IMG/VR virus record: IMGVR_UViG_3300003775_000074
Direction: 5' to 3' (one strand)
DNA: 64,000 bases
DNA from: a virus
Position numbers and translations under genes: made by a program
The notes under the pieces: model-generated
Databases searched by the model: none
Told to the model about the DNA's origin: nothing
What the model saw: only the letters and a program-made list of their open reading frames with translations
Shown here: positions 318 through 63,841 of the stretch, piece after piece
Numbering within the stretch: position 1 is the first letter of the stretch
How the letters are laid out: every line of letters starts with the position of its first letter

Positions 318-341
318 AAAAGCCCCGGCCGAGACCGGGGC
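318..341 (-). terminator. Intrinsic terminator between convergent int and spanin genes
   Basis: GCCCCGG-ccgaga-CCGGGGC stem preceded by AAAA on +, giving a U-tract on -. Confidence 0.75.
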
Positions 342-416
342 AGTTTAGGGAGGAAACGCCCAAGGAGGGCAACGCCCAACCTACGGCTACCTAATTTATT
401 GTCAACATAAAGTTGA

Positions 417-671
417 TTAATAGGCCGTCGCATTATGACGCCTGCATTCGGCAGGCAGATAGAGCCCGATCGCGCAGCCGCCCGCGACAGTCTCGTTGAT
501 CGCGAGTTGATCCTTAGGCGTCGCCCCGCGGGTGCCAGGAAGATCGGTTCCGAGCGCGCGGCGCAGATCAGGGCCGGCACTTGCCGGCTTCGAAGTCGAA
601 TTGCAGCCCGCGAGCAGTGCACTCACGCAGGCCAAGGCGAGCAGCCTCACCAGCATTGCCAGCTTCCTCAT
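417..671 (-). CDS. Outer-membrane lipoprotein, putative o-spanin (Rz1-like)
   Basis: Signal peptide with lipobox LAG-C; overlaps the 3' end of the upstream TM gene in another frame; C-terminal Cys pair. Confidence 0.7.
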   Translation of the reverse strand: MRKLAMLVRLLALACVSALLAGCNSTSKPASAGPDLRRALGTDLPGTRGATPKDQLAINETVAGGCAIGLYLPAECRRHNATAY

Positions 672-804
672 TCTGTTGGTTGATCGAGTCGCGCTCCTTC
701 AGACGCCCATGTTCCTCGATCCCATCAACCGCAAGCTTGAGCGCGATAGCGAGCGCCGCCGCAGCCAGACAAATTGCAATCCATTTGACGGGGATTCCGA
801 ACAT
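568..804 (-). CDS. Putative i-spanin (Rz-like)
   Basis: Single N-terminal TM (WIAICLAAAALAIALKLAV), helical periplasmic part and C-terminal Cys pair; overlapped by a lipoprotein gene. Confidence 0.65.
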   Translation of the reverse strand: MFGIPVKWIAICLAAAALAIALKLAVDGIEEHGRLKERDSINQQNEEAGNAGEAARLGLRECTARGLQFDFEAGKCRP

Positions 805-903
805 GACGATCTCTCCAGCGACAGCGGCAATCTAACTCGCGGCCACTTGTCTATCAACATAATGTTGATTATATCGGCATTATGAGACGAAGGAGATGGG
901 GCG

Positions 904-1113
904 ATGGCGATTGATACGAACGAGCCAGCCGGTGAAACGCGCTATCTGCGCATCAACGACCTGACCGGACGCCTGCCGATATCGCGTCCGACGATCTATC
1001 GCCTGGCGAAGAAGGGGCAGTTCCCCAAGCCGGTCAAGTTCGGCGGATCGAGTGTTTGGATCGAGCGCGAGATATCCGATTGGGAACTCGCGCAGCAGAA
1101 GGCTCGCACTTAG
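904..1113 (+). CDS. alpA: AlpA-family excisionase/regulator
   Basis: YLRINDL..RLPISRPTIYRL.K.GQFPKPVKFGG.SVW.E.EI..W is the AlpA signature; RBS AAGGAG; next to a P4-type integrase. Confidence 0.9.
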   Translation: MAIDTNEPAGETRYLRINDLTGRLPISRPTIYRLAKKGQFPKPVKFGGSSVWIEREISDWELAQQKART

Positions 1114-1136
1114 CTACCCTACAACGGGTGATGGGT

Positions 1137-2300
1137 TTAGAACAACGCCCCAGCATAGGCCGGGTCTGGGGTGAAGCTCTGGACGCGATCCAACGCAGCG
1201 GCCTTGTATTTGCCGAGTTCCGCGTAGGCGAACGGCGTCATGTGGACGCTGTCGCTCTGGTAATAGGTGCGGTTCGCTGTCGCTGTGGTGCCAAGGCCAG
1301 GATCGGCCCAAGGGATCATGCGGCAATCGATACCGACGTCGATCCCGAGCGCTGCCTTGTTGGCCACAGCATAGCGAGCGATCTCACCGAATTTGTCATT
1401 CAGCGGCGTGGTCGTCCCGCGAGCCGCAGGCGTCATCAACACGATCTTCCAGCCGGGATATTTGGCCTTGACCGCCGTGATAAGAGGGGTCAGCGAGCTT
1501 TCGATGTAATTTATGCTGCCCGTGTAGGTGTAGCCCGGTGTCCCGGCAGGAACGGCGGCCATGCCGGGATTGCCATTCTGGTCGCCGTAGGCGACATCGT
1601 TCGTCCCGATCCAGAGGAAGACCACGCCAGTCTGGCGCGGGTGCAACACGCAGTTCGTGAAATGCTCGATATTGTCGAGGTGCGGCGAGCCCTGGCTGTA
1701 GGTCCAGCCAGAGATGTTCGTGCAGCGCCAACCGCCATGGCTGACATTGTACATCAGCCGCGACTTCGCGTTGCACGCCGTCTGCGAATAGCTTCGCTCG
1801 GGGGCCATGTAAGGGACCGGCGAGCCGTCAGAAGCGACGAACAGCGCCGGCAATGCTGAGTCGTGCCCAAGCAGCCCGAAATGCGTGGTTAGCAGGTTGA
1901 GATCGGGATAGGCGCCGGAGCCTGTCGGGCCTTCGCTAAGGCTGTCCCCGATATGGATGCAAACCAAAGAGTGCAGGCCGGGATTCCAGAGCGTCGGAAT
2001 GTTCCCCGTCGTCGTTTCGGTCGCTTCAGCGGTCGCGGAATTATACTGCGCGTCGCTGAAGTCGACCCCGGCCGTGACCAAGGCCGAATAGACCAGGTCC
2101 GGCATCACGATCGGGCGCTGCGTCGTATTTGTGGTCTTAAGCGTGCCGTACTGCGTCGTGCCGCGAGGGACGCCAACGACGCCACAAATGCGGCGGTGCA
2201 GATTGCGCTGGTCGGTCGGTCCGGGCGACGCGCTAGTGGCGGCTACGGAGGATTGAGCTGCATAGGCTTGGGCGGGGCGAATATGCTGAGCCATGGTCAA
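1137..2300 (-). CDS. SGNH/GDSL esterase-domain protein, probably virion-associated
   Basis: GDSL (GDSLSEG), G.ND (WIGTND) and D..H (DSVH) blocks after a Thr/Gly-rich N-terminus. Confidence 0.8.
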   Translation of the reverse strand: MTMAQHIRPAQAYAAQSSVAATSASPGPTDQRNLHRRICGVVGVPRGTTQYGTLKTTNTTQRPIVMPDLVYSALVTAGVDFSDAQYNSATAEATETTTGNIPTLWNPGLHSLVCIHIGDSLSEGPTGSGAYPDLNLLTTHFGLLGHDSALPALFVASDGSPVPYMAPERSYSQTACNAKSRLMYNVSHGGWRCTNISGWTYSQGSPHLDNIEHFTNCVLHPRQTGVVFLWIGTNDVAYGDQNGNPGMAAVPAGTPGYTYTGSINYIESSLTPLITAVKAKYPGWKIVLMTPAARGTTTPLNDKFGEIARYAVANKAALGIDVGIDCRMIPWADPGLGTTATANRTYYQSDSVHMTPFAYAELGKYKAAALDRVQSFTPDPAYAGALF

Positions 2301-3469
2301 ACCCCCGTCTGGAGGTAGCTGTCGATGGCAGCGCGGCGCGTCCCGTTCGGGACCTCGGCCAGCACGACCATGCGGAGGAGTTCAAAGAGGCCGGCTGCAT
2401 TGTTGGCAGAGTTATTGCCAAGCCTCAGACTGACGCTGTCTGTCGTGTTGAGCGTCGCGCCGGCAGCGCAGGTCTGCACGCCGTCTGCTGCGCCGTCGTA
2501 GTAATAAGTGACCTGCCCGGCCCCGACGAAATCGGCCTCGAACCCGATGCGGTGGAAGGTCGTCGTATCGGTCAGAGCGCCATTGTTCGGTGCGCCGAAG
2601 GAGGTTGTCGCAGCGGTCGACGTGACCAACGTTCCGTCCAGCGGCGAGGAAGCCAGGAAAGCCTTGCGGGCCGTCGTGCCGGCGCTGAAATAGAGAGAAC
2701 AGCGATCAGCCGTCGAGCCAGAGCCAGCCGCCGGGAACGTCAGGTTCAGCGTGCAACCTGTTCCTGTGCCAGTCGTCGCAACCGTCGTGATCGGATTGGT
2801 TGGCGTGACCGAGTAGTTGCCGCCGCTGAGAAGCTGGAATCCGGTGACTGCGCCGCCAGAGACGGACGAAACCTTGCCGAAGCCCTGCGTGCCGGTTCCG
2901 CCACTGAAGGTGAGATAATCACCTACCGCGTAGCCGGTGCCGCCAGCAGCGACCGCAACAGCAGTGGCCGACACGGTCGAGGTGGCCTCGGAACAGTAGA
3001 CCAGCGTGCGTTTCACCGTGCCGGCAAGCGGGCGGACCATCGCGTATACCGACGCAGCGCCCAGCCCGTTGAACAGCGACTTGCGCATGCAGTCCATGAC
3101 GCCGTCAGTCGCTGAGAACACCGGGCCGCCGTTCGGTCCCTTGATCGGCTGTAGCGCCTTGTCGCCTTGCAGAAACGCCGCGCCGGTTCCGCTCAGGTCT
3201 TCCAGATACGCAACCGTATCGAAGCCGACCGCGTCATATTCGACCGCCGCGCGATCCGTGCCGTTCTGGTCCTTGTAGGTCTTCGCGATATCCCACCATC
3301 CGATGAGATTGGTGGCTCCGAACGAAGGCGTCGGCAGCACGAAAGCTTGTGGCCCAGGAGGCGACCCACCACCCGTGCCAAGGCGGTTCGGACCAAACGG
3401 ACCGGGAGCGCTCAGAGCACCGCGTCTGGAGAGAAAGCCGCCTCGTGAAAGTGCCCGATCGAACGACAA
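2297..3469 (-). CDS. Gly/Thr-rich fibre-like virion protein
   Basis: Beta-rich GGTGYAVGD..T.SGG and TGTGTG segments typical of phage appendage proteins; coupled by overlap to the SGNH gene. Confidence 0.55.
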   Translation of the reverse strand: MSFDRALSRGGFLSRRGALSAPGPFGPNRLGTGGGSPPGPQAFVLPTPSFGATNLIGWWDIAKTYKDQNGTDRAAVEYDAVGFDTVAYLEDLSGTGAAFLQGDKALQPIKGPNGGPVFSATDGVMDCMRKSLFNGLGAASVYAMVRPLAGTVKRTLVYCSEATSTVSATAVAVAAGGTGYAVGDYLTFSGGTGTQGFGKVSSVSGGAVTGFQLLSGGNYSVTPTNPITTVATTGTGTGCTLNLTFPAAGSGSTADRCSLYFSAGTTARKAFLASSPLDGTLVTSTAATTSFGAPNNGALTDTTTFHRIGFEADFVGAGQVTYYYDGAADGVQTCAAGATLNTTDSVSLRLGNNSANNAAGLFELLRMVVLAEVPNGTRRAAIDSYLQTGV

Positions 3470-3472
3470 CGA

Positions 3473-3805
3473 TCAGCCCCAAAATTCGAGAGTGACTTCG
3501 CAGGCTTCAGCGGAGATCAGGGAGATGAAGCCCATGTTGCCGAGCGATCGGACTGCAGGGTTCAGGACCGAAGCGCTCCCGTTCGTGACGTCGACGCTCG
3601 GAACCGTCGCGACGACACTGGTATCGCCGAACTTTGCGCGGAAATCTTTGGTCCCAGCCATGGACACATACTTGGCGCCTGACGGCACGGTGACCTTCTT
3701 GGCGGCGCCAGCGGTAAGCAGAATTGCCTGAACGCTGTCACTCGGGATCGGCGCAAATGCGACGCGAGGATCGCCCGACACAGGGGTTTGTCTGAAAGAC
3801 CGCAT
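3473..3805 (-). CDS. Small beta-rich putative virion protein
   Basis: 110 aa ORF with an RBS (GGGAG), first gene of the leftward block divergent from terS. Confidence 0.55.
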   Translation of the reverse strand: MRSFRQTPVSGDPRVAFAPIPSDSVQAILLTAGAAKKVTVPSGAKYVSMAGTKDFRAKFGDTSVVATVPSVDVTNGSASVLNPAVRSLGNMGFISLISAEACEVTLEFWG

Positions 3806-3895
3806 CGGAAGCTCCCGTTGAGATTTCCCAACGTCATACCGGACACTTGCGCATAATTCAACATAAGGTTACTTATTCTCCAATATGTTGAATGG

Positions 3896-4495
3896 ATGAC
3901 CATGACCTTTGACGACCTACTCGGTGGCGCCGAACCAACGCCTTCGCGATCCAAGCTGAGCGCCAATAAGGAGGCCATCAGCAAGGGCGTTTCGATCCCT
4001 TGGTTGGGGGTACACTTCAACAAGACCCGCAAGGCAGTCATGGAGGCTTTGCGCGATTGCGAGCCTATTGGAAACGGGAAGGGTGGCGGCGCGGTCTACG
4101 ATCTCGCTGAAGCCGCATCATATCTCGTGACGCCTCGGCGCGAGCTTCGCGATCTTATCCGTTCGCTGACGGCGAAGGATCTCCCGCAGGAACTGCGTGA
4201 GACCTATTGGAACGCTAAAATCAAGGAAGCCAAATACCGGGCGATGGCTGGCGAGCTTTGGCCGACGAACGCGGTCCTTCACAAGCTGGGTGAGACGTTC
4301 AAGACGATCAAACACACGACGCAGTTGTGGGTCGAGACGATCGACGAATCGAAAGGCCTCTCGAACGAACAGCGGATGCTTCTGCGGGAGCTGGTCGATC
4401 AGCTCATGAAGGAGCTGCACGAAGCGCTTGTTGCCAACGCTCAGAATTCGACGACGGAAAGCTTCGTGGCGGAACTCGATGAAGACGATTCGTAA
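3896..4495 (+). CDS. terS: Terminase small subunit (DUF1441-like)
   Basis: HTH-like N-terminus (VYDLAEAA.YL) and coiled C-terminus; overlaps the terL start. Confidence 0.85.
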   Translation: MTMTFDDLLGGAEPTPSRSKLSANKEAISKGVSIPWLGVHFNKTRKAVMEALRDCEPIGNGKGGGAVYDLAEAASYLVTPRRELRDLIRSLTAKDLPQELRETYWNAKIKEAKYRAMAGELWPTNAVLHKLGETFKTIKHTTQLWVETIDESKGLSNEQRMLLRELVDQLMKELHEALVANAQNSTTESFVAELDEDDS

Positions 4496-6593
4496 GGCAG
4501 CCTTTCGTTCGCTCGAAGACATGATCGTCGCCGCATCCGAAATGGTGCGGCCTGCTGAGCGCCTTTCCGTTTCACAGGCGACGACGAAGTACCGCTACCT
4601 CAACAACCCCGGCTCCTATGTCGGCCCCTGGCTGCATAGCAAGACGCCTTACCTCGTCGAGCCCATGGATGAATTGGGTAGCCTCGATTTGACCGGGCTC
4701 GTTTTCGTCGGGCCGGCGCGTACCGGCAAATCCGACATGTTTTTCAACTGGCTTGCCAGTACGGCCATTTGCGACCCTGCCGACATGATGATCGTCCATA
4801 TGACGAAGAATGTCGCACGCGACTGGTCCAACACGCCGCTTGCCCGAATGCTTCGTCATAGTGAAGAGGTCGGTAAGCGCATGGTGCCGGGCCGTCAGAA
4901 CAACAACGTCCATGACAAGCGCTTCAAGAGCGGCATGGAACTGCTGATCAAATGGCCCGTCATCACAGAGCTTTCAGGCAAGACCTTGCCGCGCGTCTGG
5001 TTCGCCGACTATGACCGCATGGAAGACAGCATCGACGGTGAAGGCCCCGCCTTCGATCTCGGGCGTAAACGCACCGAGACCTATAAGCGCTTCGGAATGA
5101 CAGTCGCCGAATCCTCCCCTGGCCGCGAGGTTGAGGATGCGAAGTGGGTGCCGCGAACCCTGCACGAAGCGCCGCCCACGAAGGGCATTCTCCAGCTCTA
5201 TAATCGTGGTGATCGGCGCCGCTGGTATTGGCGCTGCCTGCACTGCCGCGCGTCCTTCGAACCTGATTTCAAGCTGTTCAATTACCCGAGCAGTGAGGAT
5301 CTGTGGGAAGCCGCTGAGCTGGTGACCATGAAATGCCCGCACTGCGGTTATGACCACGATCCATCCATGAAGAACGATCTGCAGGAGCTGAATTACAACG
5401 CCCGCTGGATCAAGGATGGAATGATCTGGCATCCAAACGGCGACATCACCGGTAAGCCGATCAAGACCGATATCGGGTCCTTCTGGATGAAAGGCCCTGC
5501 TGCCGCCTTTCAGGACTGGCAATCGCTCGTCTTCAACTTCTTGCAGGCGTCGAAGGCTTATGAGGACACGGGTGACGAGGAGCCGCTTCGGAAGACGATC
5601 ACTGCCGATCAGGGTAACCCTTATGTGCCGAAGGCGACGCAGTCGAACCGGCTGCCTGAACAGTTGCGCGATCGAGCGCAGAATTGGGGTGGCTCAAAGG
5701 AAGACCCGGTCGTGCCGGCAGGCGTCCGATTCCTGATCGCTACGATCGACGTGCAAAAGAACGCCTTCGTTGTGCAGGTTCACGGCCTGGCGCTTGGCGG
5801 CGACGTCTATTTGGTCGACATGTTCAAAATCAGAAAGTCGGAACGACTGGATGAAGATGGCGAGCGTCATCAGCTCGATCCTGCTTCCTATGCGGAAGAT
5901 TGGCACCTTCTCGTCGACAAGGTGATTGAACGCACCTATCCGCTGTCCGATGAAAGCGGTCGCCGCATGTCGATCAAGATGACGGGGTGCGACTCGGGCG
6001 GTGAAGCCGGCGTGACGCCTAATGCTTACGCCTTCTGGCGATGGCTGCGTGATGAGCACGAGGCGGGGCATCATCGTCGATTCCAACTCGTGAAGGGTGA
6101 GCCGTCGAAGTCCGCTCCGCGTATTCGGCTGAGCTATCCAGATAGCCAGAAGAAGGATCGCCATTCGGGCGCACGCGGTGACGTGCCGGTCCTCTTCATC
6201 AACTCGAACATCCTCAAGGATCAGATTGCCGGCATGATCGGCCGCACCGAGGCAACTGAAAGCGCGAGCAATCTCGCGGGCATGGTCAATTTCCCGGTTT
6301 GGGCTGAGAACTGGCTTTACACTCAGCTCACCGCGGAAATTCGAACGGCGAAAGGATGGGAAAATCCGCGCAAAAAGCGCAACGAGGCCTTCGACCTTCT
6401 TGCTTACTGCATCGCTCTTTGCCTCATGCCCGAAATCCGACTGGAAAAAATCGACTGGCTGAGTCCTCCCATTTGGGCGGATGAGTGGGAACGAAACGTC
6501 TTGGTCTTCAATCCTGTGACGCAGAACTTGCCGATCACAGCCAAGCCCGCAGTGAAGCGTGATCTGCGGAAGCTTGCGGAAGCTTTGACTTAG
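4479..6593 (+). CDS. terL: Terminase large subunit, lambda gpA family
   Basis: Walker A GPARTGKS, ESSP, Zn knuckles (CLHC, CPHC) and nuclease TIDVQ, DSGG and NEAFDL motifs. Start placed at ATG 4479. Confidence 0.95.
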   Translation: MKTIRKAAFRSLEDMIVAASEMVRPAERLSVSQATTKYRYLNNPGSYVGPWLHSKTPYLVEPMDELGSLDLTGLVFVGPARTGKSDMFFNWLASTAICDPADMMIVHMTKNVARDWSNTPLARMLRHSEEVGKRMVPGRQNNNVHDKRFKSGMELLIKWPVITELSGKTLPRVWFADYDRMEDSIDGEGPAFDLGRKRTETYKRFGMTVAESSPGREVEDAKWVPRTLHEAPPTKGILQLYNRGDRRRWYWRCLHCRASFEPDFKLFNYPSSEDLWEAAELVTMKCPHCGYDHDPSMKNDLQELNYNARWIKDGMIWHPNGDITGKPIKTDIGSFWMKGPAAAFQDWQSLVFNFLQASKAYEDTGDEEPLRKTITADQGNPYVPKATQSNRLPEQLRDRAQNWGGSKEDPVVPAGVRFLIATIDVQKNAFVVQVHGLALGGDVYLVDMFKIRKSERLDEDGERHQLDPASYAEDWHLLVDKVIERTYPLSDESGRRMSIKMTGCDSGGEAGVTPNAYAFWRWLRDEHEAGHHRRFQLVKGEPSKSAPRIRLSYPDSQKKDRHSGARGDVPVLFINSNILKDQIAGMIGRTEATESASNLAGMVNFPVWAENWLYTQLTAEIRTAKGWENPRKKRNEAFDLLAYCIALCLMPEIRLEKIDWLSPPIWADEWERNVLVFNPVTQNLPITAKPAVKRDLRKLAEALT

Positions 6594-6673
6594 AAATCAA
6601 CATAATGTTGCATTTGATCGGGTAAGAGGATATTCCTCGCCGATCGGAATGTTTCGATCGGCGGCGGGCTCGT

Positions 6674-6883
6674 ATGACGGATCAAGAGCGACTGGCAGCG
6701 GCGGAAACGGCTTACCATAGGCTGATGACCGGCACCTCTGTTCAGGAGGTCGTGGATCAGAATGGTGAGCGCGTTCGCTATGCGCCGGCCAATGCCTTCC
6801 GTCTTGCCACCTACATTGCCGAGCTGAAAGCGCTTCTCGGCCTGACCAAGAGTTCTGGTCCCATGAGGTTTTGGGGCCGATGA
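6674..6883 (+). CDS. Head-tail joining protein, gpW family
   Basis: LAAAETAYHRLMTG.SV.EV.DQNGERVRY...L..YIAEL lies between terL and portal, as in lambda. Confidence 0.9.
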   Translation: MTDQERLAAAETAYHRLMTGTSVQEVVDQNGERVRYAPANAFRLATYIAELKALLGLTKSSGPMRFWGR

Positions 6884-8628
6884 CCTGGCTTGATCCCCAA
6901 ACAATGGCATTGCTCGGCGATCCGCCTCCGTCGAGTAATTCTCCCGCGCCTGACGGTTCCAGGGCTTCTCCGTCAGGCGCGGGTCGAGAGATGTCGATCG
7001 CAGGTGACGCCTATGAAGGCGCCAGCCATTTCAGCCGCGAGATGGCTATGTGGCAGCCGCCGATGCGGTCGGCCGACAACGACATCCTGCCTCAAAAGCG
7101 CACGGCGGATAGCCGAGTGCGCGACACGCTCCGCAACGACTCTTATGTCCGAGGCGGCGCGACGCTGCACAAGGACAACATTGTCGGCGGCATGTTCATG
7201 CTCAATTCCAAACCGGCATCAAAGGTGCTGCTTGGAAAGCAGGACGATGTTTTCGAGGAGGAGTTTCAGGAGGAAACGGAGACCCGCTTCACCCTTTGGG
7301 CGGAATCGCCCGACAATTGGGTGGATGCGCAGCGCGTCAATACCTTCACTGGACTCGTTCGCCTCGCGGTCGGCGTTCATACGGCTGCCGGCGAAGTGTT
7401 GGCCGCGGTAGAGTGGTTGCGCGATTGGGAAAGCTTGCGCCCGTTTAACACTGCCATCCAGTTCGTCGATCTCGATCGCCTTTCCACGCCGCCAGATCTG
7501 AGCGGCAACCGCAACGTGCGCGGCGGCGTTGAGCGCAACAAGTTCGGCGCTCCGCAGGCCTATCACGTCCGCATGGCCCATCCGACCGACTACATGACGC
7601 CGGATGCCTGGACCTGGAAGCGGGTGCCCGTTCGCAAGCCGTGGGGTCGGCTGCAGATGATCCATCTCTACGAGACGGAGCGTCCCGACCAGACCCGCGG
7701 CATTTCCGAGATGGTGACGGCGCTCAAGGAGATGCGTCAGACCAAGGACTTCCGCGAGATCGTCTTGCAGAACGCCGTGGTCAACGCGACCTATGCGGCC
7801 TCGATCGAATCCGATCTCGACACCGACGCAATTTTTACGCGTCTCGGCGGCGGGAACGTCGGCGAAGAAGAGCTGGATAAAGCGGTTCAGGGATACATGA
7901 GCGCCTATTTGGGCGCGGTGTCGGAATACATCGGCGATCGGAAGCAGTTTCAGATCGGCGGCGTCCGCATCCCTCATCTGCCGCCCGGTTCGAAACTCCA
8001 GCTTCGCCCCGCTGGTCAAGGCGGCCCGCTCGGCACCGAGTTCGAACAGTCGCTGCTCCGCTACATCGCGGCGACGCTCGGTGTTTCCTACGAGCAGCTT
8101 TCCCGCGACTACACCCGCACGAACTATTCCAGCGCTCGCGCCGCGATGACCGAGACCTGGAAGTTCATGCAGGCCCGCAAGAAGATGATGGCCGATCGCT
8201 TCGCGACGATCGTCTATCGGCTGTGGCTGGAAGAGGCGCTGAACAAGGGCATCATCACGAGCCTCCCGCGCAAGTTCGCATCGCGAAATGACACCTCGTG
8301 GCTCTACGAGAGTCAGAACTTCGACGCCATCGCCGCTTGCGATTGGATCGGCGCCAGCCGTGGTCAGATTGACGAGCTGAAAGAGACGCAGGCTGCGGTT
8401 CTGCGCCTCAAATACAACCTCTCGACCCATGAGGACGAGTTGGCTCGACTCGGCAAGGACTATCGCCAGTCGTTCCGCCAGAAGGCGCGCGAGACGGTGA
8501 GGCAGAAGGATCTCGGTATCGAGCCGAGCGAAGAGGCTCAGAGCATCAAGGCCGTCTCGGGCTCACCGCAGCAGCGACAGGCCAAGGATGAAAAGAACGA
8601 CGGCTCCGAGGACAACACCGATGAATAA
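6880..8628 (+). CDS. Portal protein, lambda gpB family
   Basis: RP.QTRGIS, LG.SYEQLSRDY...NYSSARA and IDELKE motifs; ATGA overlap with gpW. Confidence 0.95.
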   Translation: MTWLDPQTMALLGDPPPSSNSPAPDGSRASPSGAGREMSIAGDAYEGASHFSREMAMWQPPMRSADNDILPQKRTADSRVRDTLRNDSYVRGGATLHKDNIVGGMFMLNSKPASKVLLGKQDDVFEEEFQEETETRFTLWAESPDNWVDAQRVNTFTGLVRLAVGVHTAAGEVLAAVEWLRDWESLRPFNTAIQFVDLDRLSTPPDLSGNRNVRGGVERNKFGAPQAYHVRMAHPTDYMTPDAWTWKRVPVRKPWGRLQMIHLYETERPDQTRGISEMVTALKEMRQTKDFREIVLQNAVVNATYAASIESDLDTDAIFTRLGGGNVGEEELDKAVQGYMSAYLGAVSEYIGDRKQFQIGGVRIPHLPPGSKLQLRPAGQGGPLGTEFEQSLLRYIAATLGVSYEQLSRDYTRTNYSSARAAMTETWKFMQARKKMMADRFATIVYRLWLEEALNKGIITSLPRKFASRNDTSWLYESQNFDAIAACDWIGASRGQIDELKETQAAVLRLKYNLSTHEDELARLGKDYRQSFRQKARETVRQKDLGIEPSEEAQSIKAVSGSPQQRQAKDEKNDGSEDNTDE

Positions 8629-9922
8629 TCGCTTCGCGGCCCTCTTCGCCGACAACGAACCGAGCCTGGTCGCGCCCGAGAAGCAGGGCGCTTTCGAGTC
8701 GTGCCTGCATCAGGCGAACGCCATTCAGACCCGTCTCGATGCGGATATGTCTGCGCCGCACATGATCGACGACTTCTGGTTCGCGGACACCGACTGGCGA
8801 TCAGCCTACCGGCCTTACATCGTGCGCGACGGCATCTTGCAGATCCCCGTCAAGGGTGTGCTGCTGCACGACTTTCCGTGGCAGTTCGGATCGTTTGCGA
8901 CCGGTTACGACTACATCTGGCGTGCGTTCAAGCGCGGCCACGAGGACGGGAATGTTCGCGGCGTCGCCTTCGTCGAGGACTCGCCGGGCGGCATGGTCGC
9001 CGGCTGCTTCGACCTGGTCGACCGTGTTCACGCTTTCCCGAACCGGAAGCCCCTACGCGCCTTTGCGCAGGAGAGCGCCTATTCCGCCGCTTACGCGGTG
9101 GCGTCCGTCGCTGACAGCATCACCGTCTCGCGCACTGGCGGCGTCGGCTCGATCGGCGTGGTCACCGCACATGTCGATGTCAGCAAAATGATGGATGAGG
9201 CGGGCTTCAAGATCACCTTCATCCACTTCGGCAAACACAAGGTGGATGGCAATCCTTACGAGGCGCTGAAGCCCGAGGTGAAGGAACGAATCCAGGCTCG
9301 CATTGACGAGCTTGGCGAGGTTTTCGTGTCGAGTGTGGCACGAAATCGCGGCATGGAGGCCGACGACATTCGGGCAACCGAAGCGCTGACCTTCACTGCC
9401 ACTCAAGCAGTGTCGAATGGGTTGGCCGATTCCATCGGCTCGCTTGACGACGCCATTGCGACGTTTGTCGCAGACCTGTCCCTAGACGAAGGAGACGAAC
9501 AGATGTCCAACCAGGACAAGTCCACGGCGGTCGATCAGGCCGCCCACGAAGCCGGCGTGACCACTGCCCGCGCGGAAGGCCGCAACGAAGGTCTGAAGGC
9601 CGGTGCGGTCGCCGAGCGCGAGCGTATCAATGCCATCATCGGCAGCGACGAGGGCAAGGCCCGTCCGAAGGCGGCGCTCTCGGCCGCGCTCAAGACCGAC
9701 ATGACCGTCGAGCAGGCCAAGGCCTTCCTCGGCGATCTTTCCGAGGAGAAGGCTTCGACCACGGAGACGGCGGCGCCCAAGGGCCAGTCCCCCTTCGAGA
9801 CTGCCATGGGGAAGACGGACAACCCCAATGTCGGCGCCGCTGCGCAGGGCGAGGAAGAGCGTTCCGAGGTGCCCCGCCATGAACGGGCGCTGCAGCTCGC
9901 GGGGAAGACCAAGCGCGCCTGA
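8621..9922 (+). CDS. Head maturation protease S49 with C-terminal scaffold (lambda gpC/Nu3-like)
   Basis: DSPGG, AYSAAYA.AS, GSIGV and G..K motifs; C-terminal ER.RI.AI scaffold region. Confidence 0.92.
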   Translation: MNNRFAALFADNEPSLVAPEKQGAFESCLHQANAIQTRLDADMSAPHMIDDFWFADTDWRSAYRPYIVRDGILQIPVKGVLLHDFPWQFGSFATGYDYIWRAFKRGHEDGNVRGVAFVEDSPGGMVAGCFDLVDRVHAFPNRKPLRAFAQESAYSAAYAVASVADSITVSRTGGVGSIGVVTAHVDVSKMMDEAGFKITFIHFGKHKVDGNPYEALKPEVKERIQARIDELGEVFVSSVARNRGMEADDIRATEALTFTATQAVSNGLADSIGSLDDAIATFVADLSLDEGDEQMSNQDKSTAVDQAAHEAGVTTARAEGRNEGLKAGAVAERERINAIIGSDEGKARPKAALSAALKTDMTVEQAKAFLGDLSEEKASTTETAAPKGQSPFETAMGKTDNPNVGAAAQGEEERSEVPRHERALQLAGKTKRA

Positions 9923-9990
9923 CGGCAAGCCGATCGTTGGGTGGGAAACCGCCTGAATAATCAACATTTTGTTGAAAGAGAGAAATCATC

Positions 9991-10428
9991 ATGGCCACCA
10001 TCAATCCCCCGGATCTGACGGCCCTTGCCGGTATCCCGTCCCAGGGCAGCGACGTCATCAACGCCACCCCGGAAGGGTTCATCACCGGCGATATCCCTGC
10101 CGTCGTGACCGAGGACATGACCTTCGCCGCGAGCCAGAACATCCCGGCCCGCACGCCGGTCGGCCTGGACGGCTCGGGCGATCTCATCCCGGCTGTGCTC
10201 GGCACCACCCCGGCCATCGGCATGACCGTCATCGCGGTCGTGACGCCGGGCTCCGGTGCCAAGAAGGCTGCCCCGGTCTATCGCTCGGGCACCTTCAACC
10301 CCGCGCTCGTCAACTGGCCGGCGTCCTACGACACCGACGAGAAGAAGCTCGAAGCGTTCCGGGGCGCCCCGACGCCCACGACCATCATCATGCGTCCGGT
10401 GAAGACCGGAACCGTGACCCTCCCGTAA
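9991..10428 (+). CDS. Head decoration protein (gpD-like)
   Basis: Lies between protease and capsid genes; G.FNPA.V.WP motif. Confidence 0.85.
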   Translation: MATINPPDLTALAGIPSQGSDVINATPEGFITGDIPAVVTEDMTFAASQNIPARTPVGLDGSGDLIPAVLGTTPAIGMTVIAVVTPGSGAKKAAPVYRSGTFNPALVNWPASYDTDEKKLEAFRGAPTPTTIIMRPVKTGTVTLP

Positions 10429-10464
10429 CGGCCTCCCTCCGTTCGGCAACCTGAAAGGCAGAAC

Positions 10465-11547
10465 ATGACCATCGAACTGTGGGAAAGCCGGGAGCTGTAT
10501 CAGCTTCTTCGCGACGATCGGCTGGACCCTCTCCCGTCGCACTTCCTCGATACCTATTTCACCGAGGAATATTACTCCGACGACAACAAGATCCGTTTCG
10601 GTCAGTTGCCGCGCGCGAGCCGCGTCCTGGCTCCGTTCGTTCTGCCGACCGAGCAGGGCAAGCCGATCTTCGGCCGCAAGGGTGAGACGATCTCTGAGAT
10701 CACTCCGCCCTATATGAAGCCGAAGGATGCGGTTCGCGCGGAAGACGCCAAAAACGTCCTGCCGAGTGAAGTCTTCCGCAACGGCGGCCAGCGCCCGTCA
10801 CTCGCGGATCGCTTCGAGCGTCGCGTCGTCGAGATCACCGAGTTCCACGTTCGCGCGATCCGCATGCGTGAACTCTGGATGGCCGCGCGAGGCTTCATCG
10901 ACGGCAAGGTGCAGATCGACTACGAGCGCGACCAGGGCGCCGCTCTGCCGTCCGTGCTTCTCGACTTCGGCCGCGACGCCGGTCACACGGTCACGCTGTC
11001 GACCGACTATTGGGACGATCCCGATACGCCGATCCTGACCAACCTCGAAAGCTGGATGCGCACGCAGTATCTGGCCAATCAGGGCGGCTCGGCGGCTCGC
11101 CTCTACGTCGGCGCCAACGTTTCGGGAGTGTTCCGCAACAACCTCCAGGTCAAGGACATGCTCGACACCCGCTATCGCGGTGGCGATGATGTTGCGATCA
11201 ATCGCGGCATCATGCGGACCGAGCAGCCCCTGAACTACATCGGTCGCCTCGACAACAACCTGGAGGTCTACAGCTACAAGGACCAGGTCGAGAACGCGAA
11301 TGGCACGCTGGTCGACATCTTCGATCCGCGCGACATCCTGCTCGTGGCTCCCGGCGCGACCGGCGTCCGCGCCCATGGTGCGATCATGGACGACGAAGCT
11401 CTGGCCAACGGCCTCAGCGCCACCGACATCTTCCCGAAGATGTGGCGTGAGAAGGACCCCGGCTCGACCTTCATCATGCACCAGTCGGCGAAGCTGCCGA
11501 TCCCGCTCTTCCCGAACCGTACCTTCAAGGCGCGCGTTCTGGCCTGA
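10465..11547 (+). CDS. Major capsid protein, lambda gpE family
   Basis: 360 aa with LAPFV.P..QGK, P.Y.KPK and C-terminal QSA.LP.P...N motifs; strong codon bias. Confidence 0.95.
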   Translation: MTIELWESRELYQLLRDDRLDPLPSHFLDTYFTEEYYSDDNKIRFGQLPRASRVLAPFVLPTEQGKPIFGRKGETISEITPPYMKPKDAVRAEDAKNVLPSEVFRNGGQRPSLADRFERRVVEITEFHVRAIRMRELWMAARGFIDGKVQIDYERDQGAALPSVLLDFGRDAGHTVTLSTDYWDDPDTPILTNLESWMRTQYLANQGGSAARLYVGANVSGVFRNNLQVKDMLDTRYRGGDDVAINRGIMRTEQPLNYIGRLDNNLEVYSYKDQVENANGTLVDIFDPRDILLVAPGATGVRAHGAIMDDEALANGLSATDIFPKMWREKDPGSTFIMHQSAKLPIPLFPNRTFKARVLA

Positions 11548-11558
11548 TCGAGCGGCAT

Positions 11559-11584
11559 TGTAGCGGCGTTCATTTGCCGCTACA
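11559..11584 (+). terminator. Hairpin after major capsid gene
   Basis: TGTAGCGGC-gttcattt-GCCGCTACA, immediately followed by the palindrome at 11586. Confidence 0.65.
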
Positions 11585-11625
11585 TTCCACATAGTGTTGA
11601 ATTTTCAAACCCTGAAAGGTGCTTC

Positions 11626-11991
11626 ATGAGCAAGGTCAAGGCATACGCGATCCATACGATCCATCGGCGCGACGACGCCGGCAAGCCCGTGGTGGTGCCC
11701 GCGTCGGTTCTCAATCAGCCGTCCGTCTTCTCCGTCGACCAGGAGGAATTCGATCGCCTGGAGAAGCTGAACGCGGTTCGGAAGGCCACCAAGGAGGAGA
11801 TCGCCGTTGCGAACGAACAGGCGAAGCGTGCTGGCAATGCCCCCGTGGACGAGCCGCCCGCCGCCGACGATTCCAACGCGGCGAAGACCCCCGCCAAGAT
11901 GCCGGCTTCCGGCGCCCAGGGTGATCCCGCGGGTGCACCGAAGGGCGCGGCCAAGAAGTCCGAAGCGTCGGACGACGGCCTCGGCGTCTGA
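11626..11991 (+). CDS. Small capsid-associated/packaging protein with low-complexity tail ending DDGLGV
   Basis: RBS GAAAGG; gpFI-like position after the capsid gene. Confidence 0.7.
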   Translation: MSKVKAYAIHTIHRRDDAGKPVVVPASVLNQPSVFSVDQEEFDRLEKLNAVRKATKEEIAVANEQAKRAGNAPVDEPPAADDSNAAKTPAKMPASGAQGDPAGAPKGAAKKSEASDDGLGV

Positions 11992-12369
11992 ATGAGCCGC
12001 TTCCGCGACATAAAGCGGCAAGCCCGCCTCGACCTGCACAACGAGTTGCAGGTCGAGGCGTTCTATTTGACGACCCGCGATGCGACGCCTTTGCCCGTGC
12101 TCGTGCGCGTCCACACCGAGTTCAAAGCGCTCGGTGATCAAAAGGGCACCAATTTCCATTCTGCCGAGATGATCGAACGCCAGCCGCAGATCATCTTCCT
12201 TCGCTCCGAGGTTCCCTCACCTGCGCGCAATGCGATCGTGTCGGTCGAGCCTGGCGAGGCTTACCGTCTGAACACCATCAAGCCGGCCGACGACATCACC
12301 GTCACGGCTCTCGTTGTTCCGCTCAACGCTGCCGAAGCATCCGGTCTTCCCGTTCCGGGAGACCCCTGA
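11992..12369 (+). CDS. Head-tail joining protein
   Basis: Position and size match the Chi/lambda neck gene. Confidence 0.7.
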   Translation: MSRFRDIKRQARLDLHNELQVEAFYLTTRDATPLPVLVRVHTEFKALGDQKGTNFHSAEMIERQPQIIFLRSEVPSPARNAIVSVEPGEAYRLNTIKPADDITVTALVVPLNAAEASGLPVPGDP

Positions 12370-52834: not shown

Positions 52835-52911
<77 letters not shown>

Positions 52912-59715: not shown

Positions 59716-61788
59716 ATGGCGACGCTCTTTGTCGACGTCGAATGCTATCGCAATTTCTTCTACATCGGCATCAAGCGTCTCGAAGACGGGCGTCGCGTTG
59801 GCTTTGAATTCAGCAAGCGAACTGATCTTACGGGTGGTTTCGACCGCGGTCGCATCCGGCAGATCATGAAGAACAACCTCTCGATCGGCTTCAACAGCCT
59901 GCCATACGACGTGCCGATGATATTCCTGGCCTTGAGCGGTGCCAGCAATGACGACCTCAAGATCGCGAGCGATCGGATCATCAAGGGCGGGCTCCGGTGG
60001 TGGGAAGTCGAAGAAGCGCTCGACATCAAGATTCCGAAGCTCAACCACATCGATCTGTTCGAGCCCAATCCCGCGGTGAAGGACGGCCTCAAGACGCTCA
60101 ATGGTCGGCTGCACGGGAAGCGCTTGCAGGATCTGCCGTATGACGAGGCGACCATCCTGTCGCCCGAGCAGATGGACATCGTCGCCGATTATTGCCTGAC
60201 GAGCGATCTCGACGCGACCGAGAACCTGTTCAACGCTCTCGCCGAGCCGCTGGAGCTTCGTGAAGCGCTCGGTCGGCAGTACGGCATGGATTTCCGCTCG
60301 AAATCCGATGCGCAGATGGGTGAAGCCATTATCAAGAAGCGCGTCGAGACGATCACCAAGCAGCGCGCCGAAAGGCCCAGGAACATCGGTGGCACGAGCT
60401 TCCGCTACCAGGTGCCCGAGTTCTTCGAATTTCAGAGCCCACAAATGCGGGAGATCGTCGACACGATCCGTAAGACCGATCTGCATATTGATCGCAACGG
60501 CAAGGTCGAATTTCCGAAGGCATTCGACGACTTCAACATCACGATCGGATCGTCGACCTATCGAATGGGAATCGGCGGCCTGCATTCGACCGAGAGCTGT
60601 CGCGCCGTCCACTCCGATGACGACTATGTCCTGGTCGACGCTGACGTGGCCAGCCAATACCCGCGCATCATCATGAAGCTGGGGCTCTATCCGAAATCGC
60701 TCGGGCCATCGTTCCTGCCTGTCTACGGCAGCCTCATCGACGATCGCGTCAAGGCCAAGCATCAGGCCAAGCTGATCAACGACCAGCTCGCGCCGCTGCG
60801 TGCTCTCGATCCCGCAGCCCTCGTCGCCGCACAGGATCGCATTGCTGCGCTCGAAGCTGAGAAGCGCCAGGCGCTCGCACGCGACAAAGGTGGCAAGATC
60901 GCGCTCAATGGCGCCTACGGGAAGCTCGGCAGCATCTACAGCGTGCTTTACGCTCCGCACCTGATGATCGCCGTCACCCTCACCGGACAGCTCTCCTTGC
61001 TGATGCTGATCGAGCGGGCCGAGGCAGCCAGCATCTCCGTCGTTTCGGGCAACACCGATGGCGTGGTGTTCCGCTGCCCGCGCTCGATGTTCGAGGGTAT
61101 CGGTAAGGAAGGGCCTGACAAGGATCGCCTCCTCGGTGGCAAGCTCAAGGAGATCACCGACTGGTGGGAGCAGAAGACCGGTTTCGAGCTGGAATTCGCC
61201 GAGTACCGCTCGATCTACAACCGCGACGTCAACACCTACTTCGCGATCAAGGCGAACGGGAAGGCGAAGCGGAAGGGGGCCATCGCCAATCACTGGCATC
61301 CCGAGTCGCCGGACTATGATCCCGGCCGCGAGCAGATGAAGAAGAACCCGCAGATGACGATTTGCGGTGATGCGGTCCTAGCCTTCCTCAAGGACGGTAC
61401 GCCTATCGAGGAGACGATCCGCGGCAACACCGACATCAGGGGCTTCGTGACCGTCGTGAAGGCCACGGGAGGCGGCACCTGGCGGGATCACTATCTCGGC
61501 AAGGTGGTGCGCTACTACTGGTCGACGGACGGCGATCCGATCATCAAGGTCAAGGGGCATCCGAAGACCGGCAATCGCCCCAAGGTCTCGAAGACAGATG
61601 GGTGTAAGCCGGCGATGACCTTGCCCGACGAGATGCCAACCGATCTCGATTATGCGCGCTACATCGCCGAGGCCTACGACATCCTCAGAGCGGTTGGATA
61701 CGAGGTGCCAGCTACCGCGCCGTCAGCCTATCAGCAACTCCTCGAAGACGTCTTTGTCGGGAAGCGGATTATTGGCAGTCTTTCATAA
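59716..61788 (+). CDS. DNA polymerase, family B type, with 3'-5' exonuclease
   Basis: Exonuclease DVEC and FN..YD motifs; polymerase DV.SQYP, K..LNG.YGK and NTDG motifs; RBS GAGGAGG. Confidence 0.92.
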   Translation: MATLFVDVECYRNFFYIGIKRLEDGRRVGFEFSKRTDLTGGFDRGRIRQIMKNNLSIGFNSLPYDVPMIFLALSGASNDDLKIASDRIIKGGLRWWEVEEALDIKIPKLNHIDLFEPNPAVKDGLKTLNGRLHGKRLQDLPYDEATILSPEQMDIVADYCLTSDLDATENLFNALAEPLELREALGRQYGMDFRSKSDAQMGEAIIKKRVETITKQRAERPRNIGGTSFRYQVPEFFEFQSPQMREIVDTIRKTDLHIDRNGKVEFPKAFDDFNITIGSSTYRMGIGGLHSTESCRAVHSDDDYVLVDADVASQYPRIIMKLGLYPKSLGPSFLPVYGSLIDDRVKAKHQAKLINDQLAPLRALDPAALVAAQDRIAALEAEKRQALARDKGGKIALNGAYGKLGSIYSVLYAPHLMIAVTLTGQLSLLMLIERAEAASISVVSGNTDGVVFRCPRSMFEGIGKEGPDKDRLLGGKLKEITDWWEQKTGFELEFAEYRSIYNRDVNTYFAIKANGKAKRKGAIANHWHPESPDYDPGREQMKKNPQMTICGDAVLAFLKDGTPIEETIRGNTDIRGFVTVVKATGGGTWRDHYLGKVVRYYWSTDGDPIIKVKGHPKTGNRPKVSKTDGCKPAMTLPDEMPTDLDYARYIAEAYDILRAVGYEVPATAPSAYQQLLEDVFVGKRIIGSLS

Positions 61789-61824
61789 CTTGATAATCAA
61801 CATAGAGTTGATTAAATTATCGCC

Positions 61825-61923
61825 ATGTTCGACGATCCGCTAGGTCTCATTCTACCCTCCATCGTGGCCGTCACGTATATCGCGTGGGGAGCGCATTGGC
61901 TGCTGGGCAGAGTCAAAAAGTGA
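61825..61923 (+). CDS. 32-aa single-TM peptide, not in ORF track
   Basis: MFDDPLGLILPSIVAVTYIAWGAHWLLGRVKK; its stop overlaps the GTG of the next gene (GTGA); starts 13 nt after a palindrome. Confidence 0.45.
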   Translation: MFDDPLGLILPSIVAVTYIAWGAHWLLGRVKK

Positions 61924-62660
61924 GGTTTTTTGTCGGGTTACATCAGCCGTCTGATGCGGCGCATTTCAATCACGCCTTCATTTCAGTAAATCGCATTCGG
62001 AAGCGCATAAAGCCAATTGCAGCAAAATCGTGGATAATGGATAGCGGTGCGTTTACGACTATCTTGACACATGGCGGATATCCTGAAGGCGTCGAATTCT
62101 ATGCTGACCAAATAAAGCGGTGGTCAACTCATGGAAATTTACTCGCCGCTGTGGCACAAGACTACATGTGCGAGGCGCATATGCTGGCGCTCACAGGCAA
62201 GACGATTGAGGAGCATCAGCGCCTGACAATCGAGCGTTACGACGCTTTAATCACTTGCGACACTGGTGGCGTGTACATCATGCCAGTTCTGCAAGGGTAT
62301 TCGCCTGTTGACTACGTGCGCCATATCGAAATGTACGGTGATCGGCTGGCTCATGGCGCTTGGGTCGGTGTCGGAAGTGTCTGTAAACGGAATGGCGATC
62401 CATCGGCGATCGAAGAGGTGCTCACCGCGATTAAGACTGCCCGGCCTGATCTACTCTTACATGGCTTCGGTCTGAAAACGACCGCGCTGGCGTCAGATAT
62501 TGTTCGAAATCTTTTATGGACGGCCGACTCAATGGCTTGGTCATTTGCTGCGCGCAAACAAGGGCGAAACGCTAACGATTGGCGGGAAGCAAAACGGTGG
62601 GAAATGAAAATACTCCGGGTGTCTCCTTTCGAGTTGATAATCAACTCTATGTTGATTTAG
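61920..62660 (+). CDS. TGT-fold protein, putative deazaguanine DNA transglycosylase (DpdA-like)
   Basis: MDSGAF, QDY.C, PVLQG, HGFG and ADSMAW occur in the order of the TGT barrel motifs. Confidence 0.7.
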   Translation: MRFFVGLHQPSDAAHFNHAFISVNRIRKRIKPIAAKSWIMDSGAFTTILTHGGYPEGVEFYADQIKRWSTHGNLLAAVAQDYMCEAHMLALTGKTIEEHQRLTIERYDALITCDTGGVYIMPVLQGYSPVDYVRHIEMYGDRLAHGAWVGVGSVCKRNGDPSAIEEVLTAIKTARPDLLLHGFGLKTTALASDIVRNLLWTADSMAWSFAARKQGRNANDWREAKRWEMKILRVSPFELIINSMLI

Positions 62661-62668
62661 AGTGACGT

Positions 62669-63841
62669 ATGACCGCTTGGTACAACGAGATCGACCCGTT
62701 CGCTGCCGCATGGTTGCGCGAGCTTATAGCCGAAGGCCATATCGCGCCCGGCGTTGTCGACGAACGGAGCATTCTGGATGTTCGACCTTCTGACCTCCGA
62801 GGTTTCACCCAATGCCATTTCTTCGCCGGCATCGGTGTTTGGAGCTACGCTGCCCGCCTCGCTGGCTGGCCTGACGACCGCCCTCTCTGGACCGGAAGCT
62901 GCCCGTGCCAACCTTTCTCCTCGGCAGGCCAAGGCGGCGGGTTTGATGACGAGCGGCACCTATGGCCATTCTGGCACTATCTCATCGAGATCGAGCGCCC
63001 TTCAGTCGTCTTTGGCGAGCAGGTTGCGAGTAAAGACGGACTTGCTTGGCTCGACCTTGTTCAAGCTGACATGGAAGGAACGCGTTACGCCGCAGGGGCT
63101 CTCGATACCTGCTCTGCGGGGAGTGGCGCGCCGCACATCCGCCAACGCCTCCGCTTTGCCGCAACAGAGCTGGAATACGCCTCGGGCAACGAATGGCTCG
63201 AAAGGTGGACCAAATCAGGCGAATGGCGCCCTCTCGGCGGATGTCGCGCTGACGAGTTGGGTCACCACCACCACCAGGGACTGGAAGGATTCGGGCGCGG
63301 ACATCAAACCGAGATCGGACGGATCGGAGCGGCTGGATCAACTTCCTCGACAGGCGAACTTGGCAGGATGGCCATCGCCGAAGAAGGCAGACGATCAGGG
63401 AGGAGCGGACACGCGACGGGACAATGGGCGGCCGAATTCGGACTTGGTGACGATGGGCGCTTTAACCGGCTGGCCCACGACGACGACGACGGATGCGCTG
63501 CGTCATCCGGACCGGGAATTCACGACGCCGAACATCACGCTCAATCACGCGGCTTTGCGGGCAGATGGGCCGGCCCGACTAACGGCCTCTGGCGAGATGT
63601 TGACTGGCTTTTCTGCCGGGATGGAAAGTGGCGGCCAGTTGAACCCGGCACATTCCCGCTGGCTCATGGGGCTGCCGCCCGCGTGGGACGTCTGCGCGGT
63701 TATGGCAATGCAGTCGATGCCGAAGCGACGCGCGTCTTCATCGAAGCGTTCCTCGAAGCCGAGGCGGCAAGTTTCCAGCCCCTACGCCAGATTGATTCAG
63801 TCGCTGCTGACGTGACCCCGTTCGCAGAACTCCTCGGGTGA
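62669..63841 (+). CDS. C5 cytosine DNA methyltransferase, alpha polypeptide
   Basis: FFAGIG, GSCPCQPFS, EQV, HIRQRL and final RLRGYGNAV motifs; motif IX is absent from this frame. Confidence 0.9.
   Translation: MTAWYNEIDPFAAAWLRELIAEGHIAPGVVDERSILDVRPSDLRGFTQCHFFAGIGVWSYAARLAGWPDDRPLWTGSCPCQPFSSAGQGGGFDDERHLWPFWHYLIEIERPSVVFGEQVASKDGLAWLDLVQADMEGTRYAAGALDTCSAGSGAPHIRQRLRFAATELEYASGNEWLERWTKSGEWRPLGGCRADELGHHHHQGLEGFGRGHQTEIGRIGAAGSTSSTGELGRMAIAEEGRRSGRSGHATGQWAAEFGLGDDGRFNRLAHDDDDGCAASSGPGIHDAEHHAQSRGFAGRWAGPTNGLWRDVDWLFCRDGKWRPVEPGTFPLAHGAAARVGRLRGYGNAVDAEATRVFIEAFLEAEAASFQPLRQIDSVAADVTPFAELLG
62946..63815 (+). CDS. Overlapping alternative-frame beta polypeptide of the C5 methyltransferase
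   Basis: The +1 frame carries four W-[PNV]-[TS]-[PT] repeats and GQLNPAHSRWLMGLP..W (motif IX-like). Start uncertain (frame open from 62754). Confidence 0.75.
   Translation: MTSGTYGHSGTISSRSSALQSSLASRLRVKTDLLGSTLFKLTWKERVTPQGLSIPALRGVARRTSANASALPQQSWNTPRATNGSKGGPNQANGALSADVALTSWVTTTTRDWKDSGADIKPRSDGSERLDQLPRQANLAGWPSPKKADDQGGADTRRDNGRPNSDLVTMGALTGWPTTTTTDALRHPDREFTTPNITLNHAALRADGPARLTASGEMLTGFSAGMESGGQLNPAHSRWLMGLPPAWDVCAVMAMQSMPKRRASSSKRSSKPRRQVSSPYARLIQSLLT

Follow-up and report, generated by a model that had tools for sequence, protein, structure and literature searches.

A short DpdA-only-class transglycosylase at the polymerase–methyltransferase junction of a prophage from a Bosea-like bacterium

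The 64,000-nucleotide stretch of viral DNA analysed here (hereafter the window; IMG/VR record IMGVR_UViG_3300003775_000074) carries, between a phage DNA polymerase and a C5 cytosine DNA methyltransferase, a 32-aa ORF coupled to dpdA, the gene for a short transglycosylase of the DpdA/TGT superfamily. We consider it probable, with room for doubt, that the two genes are a horizontally acquired cassette that serves to replace guanine in phage DNA by a 7-deazaguanine supplied by the host. During phage replication, DpdA would swap guanine for host-made preQ0, perhaps preQ1, and the 7-deazaguanine would act as a second anti-restriction mark next to that of the C5 methyltransferase. The polymerase gene would have received the cassette within its 3′ end and thereby gained a new tail and stop codon, while a short copy of the resident junction, operator included, came to lie before the cassette. 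In turn, dpdA would have lost its own C-terminus and been fused in-frame to the 12 residues that formerly ended the polymerase and whose codons overlap the resident operator. By its sequence, the protein is a member of the already published "DpdA-only" class; new here are the relative with an empty site, the polymerase-tail fusion, a junction duplication around a different gene in another relative, and a C-terminal QxxLF peptide that is widespread in the family and lost in the window copy.

A short orphan DpdA in the replication block

Nearly the whole window is one prophage of about 66 kb. The window spans bases 3244-67243 in a metagenome contig of 139 kb, and the far end of the prophage lies about 2.6 kb past it, adjoining host selD, selB and selA. 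The host flank shares 80% DNA identity with Bosea vestrisii and, as judged from this sequence, the host is a Bosea-like alphaproteobacterium, a soil bacterium. An alphaproteobacterial sRNA gene, mmgR (suhB family), at 307-377 (−), close to the left end of the window, probably marks host DNA at the left prophage border. The replication block runs in the order DUF2800 nuclease, Enc34-type SSB, DNA polymerase, small ORF, dpdA, C5 methyltransferase, VRR-NUC and SNF2 helicase, in keeping with the placement of dpdA in a replication/modification block by a preliminary description of this DNA. The polymerase (59716-61788, +) was assigned by gene call and context, with only weak family-B-like matches in NCBIfam, while the methyltransferase (62669-63841, +; Pfam PF00145, E 6e-6) lies directly downstream of dpdA and is a conserved polymerase neighbour in four related loci (L011, L097, L122 and L174). 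Two stretches inside the methyltransferase gene, 62806-63038 and 63570-63748, match phages of unrelated hosts, the block at 63.57-63.75 kb with 86-88% DNA identity to Burkholderia, Pseudomonas, Xanthomonas and Aeromonas phages, among others, and both also draw high-depth contigs from other organisms in rhizosphere runs.

The dpdA gene (61920-62660, +) encodes 246 residues from a GTG start codon at 61920, the residue at which its homologues also begin and the start given by the public gene call. The copy is intact, and identical across all assemblies that contain it; a 159-aa call in L007 proved to be a gene-caller difference in identical DNA. The proposed TGT/DpdA-like identity was borne out by profile search, with a match to the Pfam DpdA model PF23859 at E 9.5e-40 (136.8 bits; cut-off 27) in which residues 3-214 align to positions 5-224 of 291 and the positions beyond 224 are unmatched. 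The AlphaFold model (42 homologues; pLDDT 93.2, pTM 0.89) is confident to residue ~230 and of low confidence over the last 16 residues (tail pLDDT 52-67), and the modelled fold is a TGT-type (β/α)8 barrel. The top 50 Foldseek matches in the PDB are all TGT, QTRT1, ArcTGT, the DpdA structure 7UI4 or Cap10, the best structural matches being 2ASH, 7UI4 and QTRT1 (E ~1e-6, TM ~0.6). PDB sequence searches with the protein and its profile returned nothing meaningful, and NCBIfam holds no matching model.

Three aspartates, D41 (MDSGAF), D81 and D203 (TADSMAW), are invariant in 42 of 42 sequences, and their order and spacing parallel those of Asp95, Asp130 and Asp256 in Salmonella DpdA (7UI4), the general acid/base, base-recognition residue and nucleophile of that enzyme (Gedara et al. 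2023). An hhalign comparison with 13 Hyphomicrobiales TGTs yielded only 8 columns around the DSG motif, which is not significant; IMDSGAFT is weakly set on the TDSGGFQ motif of TGT, D41 being the sole aspartate placed by the alignment tool. The protein ends 43 residues past D203, with no Cys/His cluster there that would form a structural zinc site, and this makes it a minimal form within the superfamily. The mycobacteriophage members of the family (L163 and L164, from Mycobacterium phages Yuna and Agent47) carry a zinc-knuckle-like CTHxxCxxC after the nucleophile Asp, a motif lost in the proteobacterial clade.

Public data contain over 6000 proteins of the family, each about 245-250 residues long; together with about 400 mycobacteriophages and many proteobacterial prophages, this makes DpdA-only phages numerous. 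The proteobacterial prophage members are 65-83% identical and share about 60 invariant columns, the three aspartates among them, while the nearest relatives of the window protein (70-83% identical) include named ones in Paraburkholderia, Burkholderia, Azospirillum and Sphingomonas genomes, with 213 matches also in viral contigs. Among isolated phages, phiLM21 gp25 (YP_009221496) and a protein of a Rhizobium phage are 60% identical to the window protein, those of Microcystis phages 56% and those of mycobacteriophages about 36%. In 2019, Hutinet et al. (Nat Commun 10:5442, group 3; Supplementary Data 1) listed phiLM21 YP_009221496 and mycobacteriophage Larva as carrying DpdA without the preQ0 pathway, and proposed that DpdA-only phages draw on 7-deazaguanine intermediates made by the host.

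The window prophage follows this arrangement. The preliminary description had called dpdA an orphan after seeing no folE, queD, queE or queC, and this held in every search: Pfam matches on called prophage genes and scans of uncalled stretches revealed no FolE, QueD, QueE, QueC, amidotransferase, QueF or YhhQ, and tblastn with Bosea QueC and RHEph06 FolE, QueD, QueC and QueE found none in the window or in 82 other clade loci with their 6-kb flanks. By its gene content, the prophage dpdA is thus an orphan of the DpdA-only type. Near dpdA, Rfam revealed neither a preQ1 riboswitch nor any other RNA family. The genome of B. vestrisii, which is related to the host, encodes QueC (231 bits) and TGT (534 bits), a canonical TGT being present in 15 of 15 sampled genomes of its order, and because this related genome has both, the use of a host-made precursor by the window DpdA is plausible but unproven. 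The preliminary description had left the enzyme a choice between host scavenging and other chemistry, of which scavenging remains plausible and other chemistry is unneeded, as DpdA-only phages, including phiLM21 with its YhhQ, are published. Directly downstream of dpdA in three viral contigs (L055:1672-2109, L067:2600-3028 and L040:6755-7207) lie DUF165/YhhQ genes, a pairing that mirrors phiLM21, where Hutinet et al. (2019) list the gene next to DpdA as a YhhQ-type precursor transporter, and that fits a salvage logic for the clade.

The polymerase–methyltransferase junction and its operators

The nearest relative, a B. vestrisii prophage (L011), has a polymerase 78% identical to that of the window, followed by a single operator and then the methyltransferase, with no dpdA, which is the empty site with one operator that the preliminary description had anticipated. 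DNA homology between the two breaks off within the polymerase gene at 61699, 98 nt short of the left palindrome, and picks up at 62621, 20 nt short of the right one, leaving 921 nt in the window versus 13 nt in the relative. The last ~29 codons of the window polymerase (61700-61788) are unlike the tails of its nearest relatives. The L011 polymerase ends ...SPFELIINQMLTNVTS, and its end codons overlap the operator, as polymerase tails do in five of five near relatives (L011, L174, L175, L178 and L179), TC-AAC being read as Ile/Phe-Asn and TG-TTG-A as Met/Leu-Leu. A homologous polymerase tail, with no dpdA, occurs in L103. The window polymerase stops just before the left operator; DpdA instead ends SPFELIINSMLI across the right operator, in the same frame. 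The last 12 dpdA codons and stop (62622-62660, +) match the polymerase tails of L011 and L174 at both DNA and protein level, and this in-frame match identifies them as the old polymerase 3′ end together with the resident operator, the native DpdA C-terminus having been lost in the window copy.

The same junction holds another gene in L174, whose polymerase is 76% identical to that of the window. Here, a 256-codon gene lies between polymerase and C5 methyltransferase (L174:3920-4740), with the methyltransferase-like motifs EPFAGSAS and DPPY and no Pfam match; on each side of it stands one copy of a 61-64-nt direct duplication that comprises polymerase tail, operator and ATGA stop/start junction, so that the polymerase and the unrelated inserted protein both end ...DDSPYALIINQ(V/M)LN..VQS over their last ~15 residues. 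Three states of the junction are therefore found, namely empty (L011, L097 and L122), occupied by dpdA (the window) and occupied by other genes (L174 and L179), and the duplication around another gene indicates that junction duplication accompanies gene gain at the polymerase/methyltransferase site. More distant polymerase relatives (L012-L014, L098-L126) have neither the operator motif nor dpdA and are uninformative on the junction.

Throughout the window, the palindrome TCAAC-N5-GTTGA occurs in 16 copies, against 0.02 expected, with about 18 more carrying one mismatch, which amounts to about one per 2 kb, mostly just upstream of start codons. The left copy (61790-61818, +; palindrome 61797-61811) sits within TTGATA-17-TAAATT, 13 nt before the small ORF, and the right, resident copy (62634-62663, +; palindrome 62641-62655) within TTGATA-18-TAGAGT, 13 nt before the methyltransferase start, at the same position and spacing as the operator of L011. 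By consensus match only, both lie in sigma-70-like hexamers with the palindrome in the spacer and a predicted transcription start at or near each ATG. Across 6597-62655 the operator is asymmetric: copies before plus-strand genes mostly have a perfect left half, TCAACAT, and those in the minus-strand region a perfect right half, ATGTTGA. In the window and in L011 alike, the copy in front of the methyltransferase follows the "minus" form, probably owing to its second role as coding sequence.

As the preliminary description had stated, the left TCAACATAGAGTTGA and the right TCAACTCTATGTTGA are exact reverse complements, each preceded by TTGATAA. Aligned in direct orientation, 61790-61813 and 62634-62657 agree throughout their 24 nt apart from a flipped 5-nt spacer, with a local alignment score of 53 when the spacer is flipped and 35 when it is not (shuffle maximum 32); both copies share CTTTC, then TTGATAATCAAC, the 5-nt spacer and GTTGATT. 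An invertible segment, which inverted sites 0.83 kb apart might suggest, was rejected, there being no recombinase nearby and no contig of opposite orientation in any assembly. The further suggestion that the operators are the insertion borders failed, since homology breaks at 61699 and 62621 and not at the palindromes; with the left copy 98 nt inside the extra segment, the operators mark a recombination-prone junction, not its exact borders. The right operator is the resident one, over which the polymerase gene already ended, and the left copy, within the extra segment, resembles a small-scale duplication of the resident junction in which the spacer has been flipped. Inversion of the short stretch between two inverted arms is a familiar kind of minor mutation, and we read the window pair as a shorter, older junction duplication in which the spacer between the palindrome arms was inverted.

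It is conceivable, if doubtful, that the mirrored operators are just two ordinary regulatory-site copies and say nothing of how the gene arrived. The density of the motif and its usual place right before start codons speak for this, as does the 13-nt distance of each copy from a start codon, which regulation would predict, and the mirror match hangs on about 3 free positions, as the half-site variant TCAACTC/GAGTTGA is confined to the two copies around dpdA; we estimate the chance of such a match at p ~0.02-0.05. That same uniqueness of the variant argues the other way, as do the extension of the similarity to CTTTC upstream of TTGATAA and the 61-64-nt duplication of polymerase tail and operator around the gene at the same junction in L174.

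The direction of the event we infer from composition and from the fused tail. As the preliminary description had noticed, dpdA is AT-richer than its surroundings (GC 0.506 versus 0.609 in the 3-kb flanks, about 10 points lower), a drop that is the sixth largest among 83 family loci (mean difference −0.016, sd 0.040). Together with the fused tail, it favours insertion in the window lineage over deletion in the Bosea lineage, a preference that draws on a handful of relatives and falls short of proof. No empty-site allele was found in the same population, every contig encoding an identical polymerase or methyltransferase carrying the cassette, and contigs from four rhizosphere runs contained no empty-site joint spanning it; the lower word shares of X5 and X6 reflected fragmentary cover only.

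The other member of the cassette is a hydrophobic, membrane-type ORF of 32 codons (61825-61923, +) whose stop shares 4 nt (GTGA) with the dpdA start, in agreement with the coupled TM peptide of the preliminary description. Homologous peptides, with a core LP-x-[IL]-V-..-Y-..-W followed by basic residues, precede dpdA in L015 and L016, whose DpdAs are the closest to that of the window (83% and 80% identical, respectively), their stops likewise overlapping or abutting the dpdA start, and six-frame translation of all loci compared, 3 million residues in total, contains no other instance of the motif. As the phage contexts of L015 and L016 are unrelated, the recurrence of the two genes together suggests that the pair travels as a unit. 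Other clade members have unrelated small hydrophobic ORFs at this position (the L061 group, L079, L088 and L092), and most dpdA genes of the clade are coupled merely to whichever gene is upstream. The peptide may have a function of its own or merely deliver ribosomes to dpdA. An ESM Atlas search with it gave noise-level scores only (maximum 0.81).

The terminal peptide and the role of DpdA

Most members of the family end in a feature that the window protein has lost. Within the last 24 residues, Q-x-x-[LMIF]-[FLIM] occurs in 121 of 184 non-identical DpdA proteins, with Leu at position 4 in 107 and Phe at position 5 in 98 of these carriers, and the median distance from the end of the motif to the C-terminus is 4 residues. 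Variant forms are QLxLxF or QxxLxL, in another 26 of the 184, and xLLSLM, in 9. The pattern is found in 8% of shuffled tails, in 2.7% of the 809 ORF tails taken as controls at the same loci, and at 6 places in the 41,000 residues that make up the bodies of the DpdA proteins. The last residues are QMEMFA in the phiLM21 DpdA and ..ATLFDVA or ..LALFTVDELAAA in those of mycobacteriophages; L055 and L067 encode DpdAs with no QxxLF ending. The window tail, SPFELIINSMLI, likewise contains no Q-x-x-L-F, because of the tail swap.

As a lead rather than a finding, this terminal peptide resembles the bacterial β-clamp-binding motif QL(S/D)LF, which occurs at C-termini (PMC9690074). We tentatively propose, while leaning against it for the present, that short DpdA-only enzymes are tethered to the host β clamp by P-x-Q-x-x-L-F, and that in the window this tether was swapped for a polymerase docking tail through the in-frame junction insertion. 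Were this so, base exchange would move along with the replication fork, a possible reason why an enzyme acting alone, with no DpdB, can reach DNA; binding of the clamp by QxxLF would provide a mechanism coupling 7-deazaguanine insertion to replication that is simply testable by mutation. A literature search turned up no paper that connects DpdA with the sliding clamp. Polymerase homologues that are 37-40% identical to that of the window (L109-L125) end in the canonical clamp-binding-type C-termini QSLFF, QLSFF, QLQFF and ASLF, and the polymerases of the Bosea group end in the operator-encoded tail (..LIINQML..) instead. In RHEph06 (L199:33468-35734), a phage with the full preQ0 pathway, dpdA lies two small genes from a "DNA polymerase processivity factor" and its DpdA ends ...EQRLF.

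That the protein exchanges guanine for a 7-deazaguanine in DNA, that its substrate is made by the host and that it is expressed during replication are inferences, and the absent zinc site, the absent DpdB and a Gln in place of His181 are points against a DNA-modification role. Replacement of the native C-terminus could, moreover, impair the enzyme. The main competing account, which we find rather unlikely and still a serious contender, is that the protein is a diverged or inactive DpdA that inserts no 7-deazaguanine into DNA, whether it acts as a DNA glycosylase or base exchanger on some other substrate, serves as a binding protein or is a passenger in decay. Hutinet et al. (2019) left the possible functional divergence of singleton DpdAs unsettled, having found in two DpdA-only phages either no modification (Orion, whose host makes no 7-deazaguanine) or traces (Salmonella phage 7-11, with dADG at only 0.02%). 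For the Orion DpdA (YP_655116), tblastn gave no match in bases 30000-68427 and none is annotated in bases 1-12000. The missing zinc site and partner, the lost native tail and the empty PDB sequence and NCBIfam searches agree with such divergence. What speaks against it is the strong conservation of so large a family, three aspartates included, the intact window copy that is identical in all assemblies with it, and the recurrent pairing with YhhQ-type transporters, which points to 7-deazaguanine precursors.

The TGT fold, the GenBank names of the phiLM21 and mycobacteriophage proteins and the single prophage tRNA gene (52835-52908, +) would also accommodate a tRNA-guanine transglycosylase acting on host or phage tRNA, as older "queuine tRNA-ribosyltransferase" annotations have it. 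We hold this to be highly improbable: the match is to the DpdA model and not to Pfam TGT, the C-terminal zinc subdomain of TGT is missing, hosts of the same order already have a canonical TGT, and the gene lies among DNA polymerase, DNA methyltransferase, VRR-NUC and SNF2 genes. Guanine exchange in phage DNA remains the reading we prefer, and the locus offers a tractable example of a DpdA-only phage, with an intact gene, a host lineage probably making preQ0, a natural empty-site relative and a natural tail swap. Besides, a coding tail that overlaps an operator and is duplicated around two different genes would illustrate how temperate phages gain DNA-modification genes while leaving their neighbours unbroken.

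Comparison with known systems

The singleton DpdAs of the phiLM21 and Larva type are of the same Pfam family and likewise come from phages without preQ0 genes, and in these phages, too, dpdA adjoins DNA methyltransferase genes in the early region. Unlike them, the window dpdA is wedged into the polymerase 3′ end, with a polymerase-derived tail in place of the QxxLF-type end; it is also preceded by the 32-aa ORF and has no YhhQ neighbour, and unlike the mycobacteriophage members, which keep CTHxxCxxC, its proteobacterial clade is without this motif.

The bacterial dpd-island DpdA of Salmonella Montevideo (7UI4) shares the TGT-type barrel (Foldseek E 8.8e-7) and the three aspartates in the same order, a relation invisible to PDB sequence search. 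For the Salmonella enzyme, it is established that preQ0 is put into DNA by base exchange and that the DpdB ATPase is required (Gedara et al. 2023). The window protein, in contrast, has 246 residues versus 413 at 16% identity, lacks the zinc site, has Gln for His181, and is without DpdB or DpdC partners.

Phages that encode DpdA1 with a full preQ0/G+ pathway (9g, CAjan, Rosebush and RHEph06) would share the presumed reaction and anti-restriction purpose, and their dpdA also lies near replication genes, whereas, unlike the window, they carry FolE, QueD, QueE and QueC beside it; in phages with the full pathway, 25-32% of G is replaced (Hutinet et al. 2019). The RHEph06 DpdA has marginal BLAST similarity to other clade members, and the window copy gave no match to it at E <= 1.

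The locus also invites comparison with the morons of temperate phages. Mosaic exchange at short shared junctions or gene boundaries is an established concept for such phages, and the window cassette, like a moron, is a unit of foreign composition with its own upstream regulatory site between two conserved genes, at a site that holds another gene in the relative L174. Unlike a moron, it lies in-frame within a coding 3′ end, what is duplicated at its junction is a tail of coding sequence that overlaps an operator, and the unit has no closing terminator.
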